Origin: Escherichia phage V18
Sequence record: NC_041937.1
Reading direction: 5' to 3' (one strand)
Length of the DNA: 64,000 bases
In this document: piece by piece, positions 10,184-45,728 of the stretch
Layout: each line of letters opens with the position of its first letter
Position numbering within the stretch: position 1 is the first letter of the stretch
Program-made: the position numbers and the translations under genes
The notes under the pieces: model-generated
The model's input: the letters and a program-made list of their open reading frames with translations, nothing else
Database searches by the model: none
What the model was told of the DNA's origin: nothing

Positions 10184-11166
10184 TGCTAAAACTGTGCACT
10201 GCAAAGATTATTGCTGACAGCATTTCCGAGAAAGGTAAGCGTATCACCACTTTTGAACTAGAGTATCCTCGAATTATTCACTCAGAGCTTATGACGCACC
10301 GAGTGTTCAGCCGAAACGCCATGTCTTCCCGTGCAGTACCTGTCGGCAAGATGCTGCAACAGATTGTGGAGAATCCGGCAATGCCAGTTCGCTTCGGTGT
10401 AAATAAGCGAGGAATGGAAGATGGTGGGGAACACGATCAAAAGATCCGTGTAGAGTACACTGACATGGAGCTAACTCCTGAAGAGTTTTGGAAAGAAGCT
10501 GCAAAAAACGCCGCTTGGCATGCAGAGAAGTTCGCCCTTGCTGGTTACCATAAGCAAGTATGTAACCGCTTAGTGGAGCCGTTCCAGCGCATGAAAACAG
10601 TTGTAACAAGCACCGAGTGGAATAATTTTTTCCACCTCCGTTGCTGGCACGATGCGGATCCTACGATTCAGATGTTAGCTAATTGTATGTGGGAGGCTCT
10701 TGAGAATAGCACTCCTGAAATCCTTAAACCGGGTCAATGGCACACCCCATATGTAGAGCACGTTTATTTGGACGGAGAGTTTAACTACGCTGTACGTGAC
10801 ACAGAAGGAAAGCTTTGCATTCTCGATACTAAAGAAGCTCTGTCTATCAGTGCTAGTTGCTGTGCACAAGTATCTTATCGAAATATTGACAGCACGTTTG
10901 AAAAGGCAGATAGTGTTGCTAAAAAATTGATTGGTGGGGATCGTATTCATGCAAGCCCTTACGAGCACCAGGCAACACCTATGGATCACGATAATGCAAT
11001 GGAACGTTTAAACTACTACCTGTCTTCATGTGAAATCACACAAGACATCAGTACTTGGCAGGAAGGTGTAACCCATCAAGACCGTGATGGTAAATTCTGG
11101 TCTGCCAACTTTTGTGGGTGGGTTCAGCACAGACAACTGCTTAATAACCACTTCGTGAAAGGTTAA
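10183..11166 (+). CDS. thyX: flavin-dependent thymidylate synthase ThyX
   Basis: 327 aa; ThyX signature RHR-x7-S-x-R seen as MTHRVFSRNAMSSRA. Confidence 0.8.
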   Translation: MLKLCTAKIIADSISEKGKRITTFELEYPRIIHSELMTHRVFSRNAMSSRAVPVGKMLQQIVENPAMPVRFGVNKRGMEDGGEHDQKIRVEYTDMELTPEEFWKEAAKNAAWHAEKFALAGYHKQVCNRLVEPFQRMKTVVTSTEWNNFFHLRCWHDADPTIQMLANCMWEALENSTPEILKPGQWHTPYVEHVYLDGEFNYAVRDTEGKLCILDTKEALSISASCCAQVSYRNIDSTFEKADSVAKKLIGGDRIHASPYEHQATPMDHDNAMERLNYYLSSCEITQDISTWQEGVTHQDRDGKFWSANFCGWVQHRQLLNNHFVKG

Positions 11167-33356: not shown

Positions 33357-33976
33357 TCAGCCAGAAATATCTGAATAGGCCCGATCTGCCCAGTCAGGAG
33401 CCAGTAGCGACTGGAGTGCTGCCAGGCGGACGGAATGGGAATACTTCTCATTCTTATAACAATTCTCAAATATCGAGGCAGTGAGAGAAATTAATAGGCC
33501 AGGCCGTTCACACAGTGGCACAACATTTGCAACCTATCCTGTGGGGATGAATGAGAATACCTATCATTGTGAGAACTATTATCATTACGGGCAATTTAAC
33601 ATAATACCCATTATGCGCACCACTGGCGATACATACAGGGATTGATACCATGAGTTACAGTTTACACACATAACAATTATATTTCTTACTATTTGTGTGG
33701 GATATAGTTAGCAGCCAATAGATTAGATATTGACCTGTAGACTTCCAACCGTCTGGACGTCTAAACGCCCACACACCAAGGGTTATACATACATCGCTGA
33801 ATGTAAACAGGGCCGCAAAAATGCTACCATACCAGTTTGTAAATTTTTCATGCAGCACTTGACAAAGAGGAGAAAAACTTGTCTGACACAATGTCACACA
33901 ATATGACACTTTACACTGGACACACTAGGCACAAAAAAAAAAAACTGCAGTGACTAGGTCACCCCTTCAGGTGTTT

Positions 33977-35987: not shown

Positions 35988-36197
35988 AATGTTTTCCTCT
36001 CTTCTGGTTGTTGTGTGGGCACTTTTGCCCCTTCAAGATAAATAATATCCCACCACCTGGCAGATGTCAACGGTTTTTATAGTTTTTATATAACAGGCAC
36101 CCCCGGTGATTGTCTCCCCCCGTCGCCAGGTGCCACCCGTGAAACAAGTATAACAAAAAACAGGACAAAAACAAGCCCTGTTTTGTAGATATAAGGA

Positions 36198-36389
36198 TTA
36201 TATTTTTTCGCCTATGTAGTCCGGCCTATTCTTTTCGGTCATACGCTTAAGCATTTTTTGCAAAGAGTTAATATATAACACCAGATCGCTGACTACCAGG
36301 ACAACATTAATCAGCACATACCTAACCATAAAGGGAAAGATCGCCAACATTGCCGCCACGATCCCCATGGTAATAATTACCTTTCTCAT
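36198..36389 (-). CDS. small membrane protein
   Basis: 63 aa, two hydrophobic segments. Confidence 0.35.
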   Translation of the reverse strand: MRKVIITMGIVAAMLAIFPFMVRYVLINVVLVVSDLVLYINSLQKMLKRMTEKNRPDYIGEKI

Positions 36390-43478: not shown

Positions 43479-43877
43479 TTATTCGTGGGCGCATGTTACA
43501 ATGTGCTTTTTATAACCCAGGTGGTCAGCAAGTGCCGACAAAAACTCTTCTTCGTAGATCCAGCCGTCGGCAGTGATCCCCATAGCATCTAATGCGCTTT
43601 CAAGTGCTGCGTTGGCTTTATCGTAACCGTGACCGCTCGCCTTGCCGCCAGTATAACCGTACTTATTGTTCTTGTTGTCGTGAATCCAAAACACGCAGTA
43701 GTAAGTGTTCCCGCTGGCTGCGGCATAATACCGGATCTCAGCTACTTCGTGCAAATTATTGTCATCGTCCAGGCCCACCAGATTATAAGCCTTGTAAAAT
43801 CCACGATCACGGCGGCAGTTCTTAACATCAGAAAAAGAGAAGTTAGCATTATCAAAATTAAAGGTAGTGGTTTTCAT
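43479..43877 (-). CDS. hypothetical protein
   Basis: 132 aa; RBS AAGAGGATAAA. Confidence 0.4.
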   Translation of the reverse strand: MKTTTFNFDNANFSFSDVKNCRRDRGFYKAYNLVGLDDDNNLHEVAEIRYYAAASGNTYYCVFWIHDNKNNKYGYTGGKASGHGYDKANAALESALDAMGITADGWIYEEEFLSALADHLGYKKHIVTCAHE

Positions 43878-43941
43878 GATTTTATCCTCTTAGTGTCTTT
43901 TGTGCTTTCAGTGTATTTTGTGTCAGACTATATGTCAATAC

Positions 43942-44139
43942 TTATTTTTTATTAAACCAGTGGTTGATCTGACCTTTTGTCAGGGCGCAACGGTTAAGCT
44001 GTTGCAGGGTATAGCTATGACCGCGACGGAATTTATAAAGGCCTTGCCCGTTGTTGATGGTTACATCCACCCGGCAAATCACTTGATTGGTGACCACCTG
44101 GCGAGTATTGCGACGTACTTTAATTCCGTAGGCGTTCAT
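43942..44139 (-). CDS. hypothetical basic protein
   Basis: 65 aa; RBS AGAGGATAAA. Confidence 0.35.
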   Translation of the reverse strand: MNAYGIKVRRNTRQVVTNQVICRVDVTINNGQGLYKFRRGHSYTLQQLNRCALTKGQINHWFNKK

Positions 44140-44215
44140 GATTTTTATCCTCTCTGTTAATTAGTGTGGTGTTGTTCACCTTGCGAGGATAAGAATAACA
44201 GAACTATCCGAGCTG

Positions 44216-44386
44216 TCAACCATTGGTTAGAATTATTTTTTGGGCAGAATCCCCGCCCAGGTTAACCATCATTTTTTCGTACTCTTCTTTATGTTCCAAT
44301 GCTTCCGTTTTAGCCTTTTCGACCAGGGTGATAGCCTCAGCGTCATTAATCGCTACATTTCCCAGGTGAGTAGCATTACCTTTCAT
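44216..44386 (-). CDS. hypothetical small protein (56 aa)
   Basis: strong RBS GAGGAGGT 7 nt before ATG; translation checked by hand. Confidence 0.4.
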   Translation of the reverse strand: MKGNATHLGNVAINDAEAITLVEKAKTEALEHKEEYEKMMVNLGGDSAQKIILTNG

Positions 44387-44544
44387 TTTTGTACCTCCTC
44401 TTCAATTGTTTACCCTACAGCATGGGCCTACCAGGTTTGCAAGATTTCACCCTCTCCCACCTGGTCAGTTAGGTCCTGCCAGGCTGGCCCCGCCAGGTTG
44501 CAGCGGTTGGCGCATTATGTTAGAAAAAAAATTTTGAAAAGGTG

Positions 44545-44573
44545 TTGACAGCGGCCCCGCCAGGTGGCACAAT
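44545..44573 (+). promoter_or_regulatory. sigma70-like promoter on the plus strand inside the minus arm
   Basis: TTGACA at 44545-44550, 17-nt GC-rich spacer, CACAAT. Confidence 0.4.
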
Positions 44574-44670
44574 ATACCTATCGAAAGGACGGCAGGCACC
44601 GGTGACGGGGGAGACAACCACCGGGGATGGGCGCTGCATAAAATGAGAACGGTTATCATTATCATTTAAA
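44574..44670 (+). ncRNA. candidate small non-coding element, copy 1
   Basis: no ORF; GGGAGACAACCACCGGGG core and GAGAACGGTTATCATTATCATT tail; paralogous to 44720-44800. Confidence 0.3.
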
Positions 44671-44719
44671 AATTTATGCAAAAAATCCTTGCTTTCTTTG
44701 TCCTGTGTGATACTATAAT

Positions 44720-44800
44720 AACAAGCCGGGGCAACAGGGGCCGGGAGACAATCACCGGGCCTGCCCGTTATTCTGCAAACGAGAATGATTATCATTCAAA
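44720..44800 (+). ncRNA. candidate small non-coding element, copy 2
   Basis: TATAAT at 44714-44719 upstream; GGGAGACAATCACCGGG core and palindrome GAATGATTATCATTC. Confidence 0.3.
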
Positions 44801-44913
44801 ATTCTAAATGAGAACTCCTCGCATTTAACAAATTTAATTAGCATGCTAATTACCTTCCGTAACAATTTCCTATAAAATAGTACCCCATAAAATATTCCCA
44901 TATAGAAATTTTA

Positions 44914-45089
44914 AAAATCCATTTCTGAAAACGAAAAATCGATTTCGTTCCCAAAAATTTTAGACCTGGTGCTGGACCAATTTCAAGAAAATCCGATTCA
45001 GAAAACGAAAAACAGATCGAGTACCGAAAAATTTATCGAGAAAAATTTTCAGAAAATTCAATCTTTGAAACGAAAAACAGATCGAGTAC
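44914..45089. repeat. tandem direct repeats (three units of ~66-74 bp)
   Basis: gaaaacgaaaaa(c/t)... at 44927, 45001, 45067; a 23-mer is identical between units 2 and 3. Confidence 0.7.
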
Positions 45090-45401
45090 TTGGAAAGCTG
45101 TGCCGCAACTTCAAGATAGTGGTTGGATTATTACCATAAAAGGTCAAGGGTAAGCGGAGGAAGTTCCCGTAGAAGGGTGTGAGCATGTGCGGGAAATCTG
45201 TAATGGTGATCTGGAATATGGTGCAAACGATAGGATGAGTGATTCATCTCGTCGTGCCTGCTCTGAAAAATCCATTTTAGTTTTCGATCCATTTTCTGAT
45301 TTTCTAAGGATTTTAAAATATCCGGGCAGGTAAAATATCAAAAGGAGGAAATCCATTTTAGAAATCCCCCTTACACTTGATATGCCAGGAATTTTCAAGT
45401 A

Positions 45402-45728
45402 TCAGCTGTTTTTGTTTTTAGGTTTGTACATGCGCAGAGGTATGGTCGTAACAGTCCATCTCCCCAGCCCTTCCCAGTTCCAGTTGTAGGCATGGTACCC
45501 GGTTATGCATGCACTGCTAGAGTGGTCATAGGCATAAGAGAACGCTATACGCACCAAATGGAACCAGTCTTTCCACGGTTGTGGTCCGTAAGCTTTTCTC
45601 CAACACCGACACAAACTAAATGTCTCAAGAATAGGCAGGATAACAAATCCATACACCGCCACCAGAATAGCCAGCGCAATGATTGTCAGGAATACATACC
45701 CTGCAGTTGAAACGATGATCTCTGTCAT
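45402..45728 (-). CDS. membrane protein
   Basis: 108 aa; N-terminal YVFLTIIALAILVAVYGFVILPIL. Confidence 0.4.
   Translation of the reverse strand: MTEIIVSTAGYVFLTIIALAILVAVYGFVILPILETFSLCRCWRKAYGPQPWKDWFHLVRIAFSYAYDHSSSACITGYHAYNWNWEGLGRWTVTTIPLRMYKPKNKNS

Follow-up and report, generated by a model that had tools for sequence, protein, structure and literature searches.

Predicted Fur operators in a repeated, conserved non-coding promoter cassette of the lytic coliphage V18

The DNA analysed here, called the window below, is a stretch of 64,000 nucleotides from Escherichia phage V18 (sequence record NC_041937.1), and the elements in question are two neighbouring segments at 44545-44810 that a first-pass annotation had described as promoter-headed, paralogous and non-coding, offering a duplicated small RNA gene or two operator cassettes as explanations. 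We favour, with a probability of roughly 45%, the reading that these segments are tandem copies of a conserved non-coding cassette of convergent promoters gated by Fur, and not a pair of small-RNA genes. The second of the two earlier explanations appears to be essentially right, because the 3' motif shared by the segments (GAGAAY...TATCATT) is, as judged from its sequence, a Fur-box operator read on the opposite strand. In plus-strand order each copy would consist of an early-type sigma-70 promoter, a core of about 45 bp and at least one Fur operator; in the presumed ancestral copy (copy 2) a Fur box would also fill the spacer of a facing minus-strand promoter, TTGAAT-18-CAGAAT. This arrangement suggests that part of early phage transcription may depend on host iron. 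Our literature searches turned up no earlier account of lytic phages in which a repeated cassette of convergent promoters incorporates an array of operators for a host repressor.

Results

The two repeats lie where they had been placed. Their 17-nt core, GGGAGACAAyCACCGGG, occurs at 44609-44625 (copy 1, GGGAGACAACCACCGGG) and 44743-44759 (copy 2, GGGAGACAATCACCGGG), 134 nt apart and identical at 16 of 17 positions, and the shared 3' motif follows at 44641-44673 and 44777-44809, 136 nt apart. When as many as 3 mismatches are tolerated the core matches three places in the 64 kb, against 0.13 expected and with none of 100 shuffled sequences reaching three; the third match, missed by the first-pass annotation, lies at 36102-36118 on the minus strand. 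A hidden Markov model trained only on cores from phages of other genera (nhmmer, over the same 64 kb) finds exactly these three places: copy 2 at 44728-44770 (E = 1.5e-7), copy 3 at 36091-36136 (plus strand, E = 7e-7, coinciding with the pattern match and inverted relative to copies 1 and 2) and copy 1 at 44588-44636 (envelope 44636-44588, E = 0.44, marginal). Copy 2, which reads GGCA-N5-GGTGATTGTCTCC on the minus strand, is taken as the ancestral and widely conserved form and copy 1 as a diverged paralogue, itself invariant in the genus bar a single substitution in one of the genomes. What is conserved is the primary sequence (minus strand, cWGAAT-rrC-rGGCA-N5-GGTGwTTGTCTC), whose variation is concentrated in its 5-nt spacer; read on the plus strand the core of about 45 bp takes the form GGGAGACAAyCACC...TGCC. 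Comparisons by eye with sigma-54 promoters, the marbox, IscR type-2 sites, Zur sites and boxA gave no fit.

The window belongs to an rV5-like phage (Vequintavirus), lytic on E. coli: 120 phage records match positions 44100-45200 at 80-95% identity, nearly all of them Vequintavirus coliphages. Across 9 genomes of the genus 44540-44830 is almost invariant, and indels and substitutions are seen in 44400-44530; the synonymous-type difference amounts to 0.05 in the conserved region and to 0.29 in a neighbouring 56-residue gene, the latter value coming from one pair of genomes only. The copy-2 segment (about 44728-44832) reaches further still, with 249 matching records in a distant blastn search and 72-88% identity in Phapecoctavirus, Mydovirus, Certrevirus, Seunavirus and Serratia and Enterobacter phages, so that the cassette is recognisable in two subfamilies. 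Copy 3 is conserved in 211 phage records, Phapecoctavirus and Certrevirus included. These patterns indicate a region under selection at the nucleotide level. A host origin of the cassette was rejected after blastn against 5,426 E. coli genomes, which returned one chance-level 26-nt match, and pattern scans of IMG/VR with the box and its core flank returned mostly unrelated contigs, the only true relatives being L068 and L073.

The identities of the motifs, their arrangement and their conservation can be read directly from the DNA. The copy-1 box at 44642-44660 (AATGATAACCGTTCTCATT on the minus strand) is GATAATGATAACCGTTCTC, agrees at 16 of 19 positions with the canonical Fur box GATAATGATAATCATTATC and is the sole match at this level in the window (0.03 expected); an overlapping site shifted by 6 bp occupies 44648-44666. 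The copy-2 box at 44778-44796 (AATGATAATCATTCTCGTT on the minus strand) is TTGAATGATAATCATTCTC, agrees at 15 of 19 positions with the E. coli consensus and fills -34 to -16 of the predicted minus-strand promoter; a weaker, second Fur-like box lies 29 bp from it at 44807-44825. The phage boxes have the form by which Fur boxes are recognised, a 19-bp inverted repeat GATAATGATAATCATTATC, or TGATAATnATTATCA in its 7-1-7 form. In the other genera the palindrome AAATGAgAATnATTCTCATTT occurs 2-4 times per locus at a fixed spacing of 29 bp, the same distance that separates the two boxes of copy 2.

Scoring with position weight matrices led to the same sites. A matrix built exclusively from boxes of phages in other genera, with all boxes of this genus excluded, gives 27.3 bits at 44642-44660 (the best score in 64 kb), 24.7 at 44778-44796 and 16.6 at 44807-44825; in shuffled windows the mean maximum is 13.4 bits and the overall maximum 18.5, and all further matches above 13.5 bits in the window fall at 33434-33586. 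A second matrix, built from all collected phage boxes, was run over 26 kb of E. coli K-12. Its top 9 matches all lie within the fepA-fes, fepD-entS and fepB-entC intergenic regions, about 3% of that sequence, where the classical Fur-regulated promoters of the ent/fep cluster lie; the best match outside these three regions scores 10.5 bits.

A plus-strand promoter-like site does head each segment, and both are conserved. The site heading copy 1 (44545-44573, plus strand; TTGACA-17-CACAAT, a 10/12 sigma-70 match with an upstream TG) is essentially invariant in the 9 genomes of the genus, is preceded by an A/T tract at 44518-44540 and resembles GTTGACA sites that head genes elsewhere in the window. 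It fits the early-promoter consensus of Certrevirus, AAAA-N3-TGTTGAC-N19-TATAAT (PMC7344957). The site heading copy 2 (44689-44719, plus strand) is near-invariant in the genus and combines TTGCTT at 44689-44694 with the TATAAT previously noted, confirmed at 44714-44719, over a spacing of 19 nt, or with TACTAT at 44711-44716 over 16 nt. Other genera have equivalent sites at an equal distance from the core (TTGCAA-17-TATATT, TTGCTT/TTGATC-16/17-TATTCT, often with TGn). Taken together, a promoter-like site of the type TTGnnn-16..18-TAnnnT, often with TGn, occurs on the GGGAGACAA strand (plus for copies 1 and 2) of 15 of 16 core copies from all genera, and in most copies its -10 ends 37-42 nt from the core motif. 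Copy 3 is headed in the same GGGAGACAA orientation by TTGTTT-16-TATACT with TGn (36147-36174, minus strand), which overlaps the terminator of the upstream gene.

On the opposite strand a promoter-like site at 44770-44799, with TTGAAT at 44799-44794, an 18-nt spacer and CAGAAT at 44775-44770, is directed at the early genes further downstream (44386 and below). In copy-2 orthologues this TTGAAT-18-CAGAAT encloses the promoter-proximal Fur box. TTGAAT accompanies 9 of 12 promoter-proximal boxes and 1 of 13 upstream boxes (Fisher p=0.001), and CAGAAT or GAGAAT stands at the equal position in most copy-2 orthologues. The starts predicted for the two strands, at about 44724 (plus) and 44763 (minus), would converge on the core with about 40 bp between them; both copy-2 sites are kept at a fixed distance from it, and their convergent activity is a prediction. 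Since the predicted promoter beneath the Fur box on the minus strand is opposed to that on the plus strand, either strand may be the transcribed one.

The proposed duplicated small RNA gene was not borne out: neither segment of about 90 nt is followed by a terminator, Rfam has no matching family and there is no consensus fold. Searches of both strands within the repeated segments found no Rho-independent terminator, only U-rich tails of the UUAUUCU type. Rfam 15 had no match at gathering score in the window and none at E<=5 in 43800-45600, and only chance-level matches in six related loci. For covariation among the copies and their homologues, RNAalifold over 21 copies yielded no consensus structure on either strand (-3.1 and -1.6 kcal/mol, with essentially no consensus pairs). 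Folded individually, 15 copies give dissimilar structures and favour neither strand, the summed energies being about equal (-226 vs -219 kcal/mol). A short stem closing a UGwUUGUCU loop can be drawn in most copies and, as weak evidence, holds U-G pairs on the minus strand only, in three Certrevirus-type sequences. The 3' third of the proposed RNA appears to be a protein-binding palindrome that acts at the DNA level.

The plus-strand fold of copy 3 combines a 5' hairpin with a terminator hairpin (z=-3.1). As a general model, a small-RNA gene that ends there was rejected because the terminator is that of the upstream gene and, in CR8, is one-directional. A tRNA-like element was considered likewise, tRNA-Met being annotated over the homologous stretch in a Klebsiella phage record, and was rejected: ARAGORN found no tRNA in the window or at that annotated locus. 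In that Klebsiella phage record (OY978796.1, L003) the tRNA-Lys, tRNA-Ile and tRNA-Met annotated at 10349-11044 are thus not reproduced, and their coordinates are probably misplaced.

The segments sit inside a stretch of about 1 kb flanked by small minus-strand genes; its annotation is blank in many records (for example phage naam) and elsewhere consists of one hypothetical open reading frame (ORF). The rV5 genome paper marks an unexplained 'non-coding' box on its map, which may or may not be this region, and could not locate an origin. The description of the locus as an 'ORF-free island' does not hold literally, a minus-strand ORF of 91 residues (44520-44795) being annotated there as rV5 ORF198 or ECML10_000150 (phrog_14993), but that ORF shows no coding behaviour. 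Its ATG lies inside the Fur box and lacks a Shine-Dalgarno sequence, it is shortened to 14 residues in phage Alma, and in Phapecoctavirus, Mydovirus and Seunavirus the frame stops after 6-26 codons despite conserved DNA. Column entropy is 0.50, 0.56 and 0.44 at codon positions 1-3, without the third-position excess of variation expected of a coding gene. The dN/dS of 0.49, the lowest of the three frames, comes from few substitutions and is inconclusive alone. We judge ORF198 non-coding because of its frame breaks and the codon-position test, having found neither a kept frame nor a ribosome-binding site nor a third-position excess; its PHROGs family exists because annotators call the ORF. The segments are, as first described, paralogous non-coding elements.

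Several observations concern the surroundings of the three copies. A second cluster of four Fur-like boxes, unannotated and conserved only within Vequintavirus (118 records), occupies 33434-33586 as two pairs, each offset by 18 nt and 116 nt apart, with scores of 14-20 bits, in an ORF-poor zone (about 32.8-34.6 kb) where the plus and minus gene arms converge. Copy 3 is located between the terminator of a minus-strand ORF (36198-36389) and the annotated promoter P168 (region 36091-36190), the latter being TTGACA-17-TATTAT at 36069-36041 on the minus strand. The 56-residue gene just downstream of the cassette (44216-44386, minus strand, phrog_21957) is frameshifted or truncated in several members of the genus, making its coding status doubtful or its evolution very fast. 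Beyond copy 2, at 44830-45400, the DNA is 30% GC and iteron-like, with three direct repeats of about 47 nt (44914-45099) that contain GATC (..GAAAACGAAAAACAGATCGAGTAC..) and with AAATCCATTTTAG repeats at 45268 and 45349. Repeats of the GGCCCCGCCAGGT type with CCWGG (Dcm) sites recur at 44418-44569 and 36050-36069, and also in the spacers of the promoters at 44545 (plus) and 36069 (minus).

In 9 of 12 related loci (L003:1418, L004:1482, L008:1129, L009:1119, L010:1129, L249:11940, L250:11929, L251:11929, L073:11566) a perfect GTAAA-N5-GTAAA direct repeat, the CpxR-type consensus, lies just upstream of the copy-2 plus-strand promoter. Its repeats are invariant and its spacer variable; it is absent at the equivalent place in the window, and an extra copy lies near copy 3 of L249. 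In eight loci (L003, L004, L007, L008, L249, L250, L251, L252) copy 1 is replaced by a conserved non-coding block of about 100 nt, CTACCGGCGATCCACCTTCC...GTTAGCCCCGCCTTTTCGCCGTGGGGTGGCG, which adjoins the copy-2 cassette downstream of the orthologous early promoter and contains a core-like part, CCGGCGATCCACCTTCC. A central hairpin in this block covaries (CCAGG/CCTGG vs GCCG/CGGC) and folds about equally on both strands; folding of both strands of the block gave no robust consensus structure and no strand preference. In Seunavirus and Certrevirus copy 3 (L249:3780-4140, L250:1060-1420) lies in another extended non-coding island, where the same elements recur: the core, an early promoter, Fur boxes, AAAACGCGTTTTA palindromes and CTTTACA repeats. 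This recurrence suggests that each genome contains several control islands assembled from shared modules.

Discussion

We infer the binding of Fur, the activity of the promoters and the following regulatory logic. Under iron-replete conditions Fur-Fe2+ would occupy the boxes, keeping the minus-strand promoter off and confining transcription to short plus-strand products that extend into the Fur array. Under iron starvation Fur would be off and the minus-strand promoter on, and the converging transcription units would then interfere or pair across the core, so that convergent transcription would set the output. The outcome would be a coupling of part of early transcription to the iron status of the host. 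Copy 1 would be a diverged duplicate that has kept the strongest plus-strand promoter and the strongest Fur box and has lost the minus-strand -10. A wider proposition, which we regard as doubtful, is that virulent rV5-like and phAPEC8-like phages sense the state of the host through arrays of operators for host transcription factors (Fur boxes and, in sister genera, a perfect CpxR-type repeat) in a repeated convergent-promoter cassette around the conserved 45-bp core, thereby gating early transcription or strand choice by iron limitation.

The reading as a Fur-gated cassette must be tempered by several findings that weigh against it. About 90% of phage boxes have ATTCTCA as their right half-site vs ATTATCA in the E. 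coli consensus, and counted from the universal plus-strand promoter the boxes fall at about +54 to +100, unlike the position of classical Fur repression. The minus-strand site is weak (8/12, below the threshold of the sigma-70 scan), its -10 is CTGAAT or CGGAAT, without the critical A, in Mydovirus, one Certrevirus and copy-3 orthologues, and in copy 1 the promoter is degenerate. In this phage copy 3 comprises core and promoters without a Fur box; its orthologues in Seunavirus and Certrevirus carry Fur boxes. The strong conservation of the core is unaccounted for by a cassette built around Fur, and a literature search on Fur boxes in rV5-like or phAPEC8-like phages returned nothing relevant.

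A different regulator of similar specificity may read the palindromes, given that the phage boxes have C where the E. coli consensus has A, and the boxes do share control islands with other phage-specific repeats; operators for a phage-encoded or non-Fur host regulator that merely resemble Fur boxes are nevertheless, in our estimation, fairly improbable. A phage-derived matrix selects exactly the known Fur sites of the ent/fep cluster, the box is kept across two subfamilies with diverged flanks, as expected for a conserved host factor, and GAGAAT-type hexamers are present in classical Fur operators such as iucA. An RNA product could be envisaged from either strand. That each plus-strand promoter makes a trans-acting small RNA of 50-200 nt containing GGGAGACAAyCACC, with the Fur boxes marking or limiting its 3' end, we consider unlikely: no element other than the plus-strand promoter accompanies the core universally, the promoter at 44545 is strong and of early type, AT skew becomes positive on the plus strand over 44400-45200, unlike the flanks, the plus-strand fold of copy 2 beats shuffled sequences (z=-2.35; a GC hairpin followed by UUAUUCU) and all three window copies fold slightly better in the plus-type orientation, but no canonical terminator is seen (the copy-1 hairpin is followed by AUAAAAUG), the consensus structure, covariation and Rfam match are missing, a DNA operator explains the 3' motif better, and in Certrevirus the inner stem survives two C-to-T changes on the opposite strand alone (CCTGG/CCGGG: U-G vs C-A). 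Searches of the literature for small RNAs, transcriptomes, mapped transcripts or the motif strings of rV5-like and phAPEC8-like phages returned nothing relevant.

The same wobble pairs lend something to a minus-strand RNA repressed by Fur, either a small RNA or a 5' leader, which would begin with the core, expose GGUGAUUGUCUCC, an anti-Shine-Dalgarno-like CUCC, in a loop and act as a functional analogue of iron-sparing small RNAs such as RyhB. The overlap of Fur box and predicted minus-strand promoter, the fixed distance from -10 to core in copy-2 and copy-3 orthologues and the slightly better minus-orientation folds of 10 of 15 copies point the same way; the poor -10 in several lineages, the lack of a terminator and of a conserved fold, and the absence of sequence similarity to RyhB (no Rfam match) count against it, and we give it little credence. 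It is very unlikely, in our view, that the island of about 1 kb is a transcription-activated replication origin resembling the T7 primary origin, its promoters firing into the AT-rich iterons of 44830-45400 and its Fur boxes serving as a gate or a decoy that titrates Fur. Two tandem plus-strand promoters do point into a 30% GC stretch with three GATC direct repeats and no convincing ORF, and the rV5 origin has not been located; against this, copy 3 has promoter and core and no adjoining AT-rich iteron region, no GC-skew switch occurs at the island and nothing ties Fur to origin function. Barely credible, finally, is a protein encoded by ORF198: the frame stays open in 8 of the 9 members of the genus and also in Certrevirus, forms a PHROGs family and has the lowest dN/dS of the three frames, but the start inside the Fur box without a Shine-Dalgarno sequence, the lack of a third-position excess, the truncation in Alma and the early stops in three other genera oppose it, as does the finding that synonymous sites are about as constrained as the remainder.

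The Fur-gated cassette, should host Fur bind the arrays, would mean that a strictly lytic phage adjusts the expression of its early genes to the iron available, and would amount to a switch for environmental sensing in phages of this kind. Members of the rV5-like and phAPEC8-like groups abound in the gut and are frequent in cocktails for therapy and biocontrol. Both the gut and infected tissue are normally iron-limited, and under this condition Fur control would affect how such phages perform in vivo relative to rich laboratory media. To our knowledge the regulatory regions of these phages are essentially uncharacterised. The analysis also delimits a conserved core of 45 bp, of which each genome has three copies, and removes a spurious protein family (phrog_14993, ORF198).

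Comparison with known regulatory systems

The closest likeness is to the Fur-repressed sigma-70 promoters of enterobacteria (fepA-fes, fepB-entC, iucA, ryhB), which share with the predicted phage operators a 19-bp A/T-rich inverted repeat of GATAAT-type hexamers and arrays of adjacent sites, the repeat overlapping the -35/-10 region, in the phage that of a weak predicted promoter, and whose ent/fep members are recovered by the phage-box matrix. Unlike them, the cassette belongs to the non-coding early control region of a virulent phage, prefers ATTCTCA in the right half-site, has its box also downstream of a facing promoter and has no iron-related gene in view; here binding is predicted. Phage-borne Fur operators have precedents in temperate phages, where a Fur box lies at the stx1 promoter. 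Another stands upstream of sitABCD on lambdoid prophages (PMC6969025). As in those cases, an operator on phage DNA would join the phage to the host Fur regulon; they serve cargo and virulence genes of prophages, whereas the present boxes lie in the early regulatory region of lytic phages, are repeated 2-4 times and extend over two subfamilies.

In its layout the cassette recalls the switches of P2 (Pe/Pc) and 186 (pR/pL), in which promoters converge over tens of bp with operators between them and interference is possible. Those switches use phage repressors to decide between lysis and lysogeny; here the operator resembles that of a host repressor, the phage is lytic, there are three copies and convergence is predicted only. 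The PeSL (promoter-early stem-loop) cassettes of T4-type phages are likewise short and repeated, with an early promoter and a GC stem-loop among small early genes, a likeness to which the overlap of copy 3 with a terminator adds; PeSLs occur in large numbers and serve as modules for recombination, in contrast to about three cassettes per 64 kb with a strongly conserved core and Fur boxes. The putL and putR elements of HK022, finally, are also paralogous non-coding elements just downstream of early promoters, in opposite orientations within one genome, but the put RNAs share a two-stem fold supported by covariation, whereas the V18 cassette has no conserved fold and is conserved as primary sequence.

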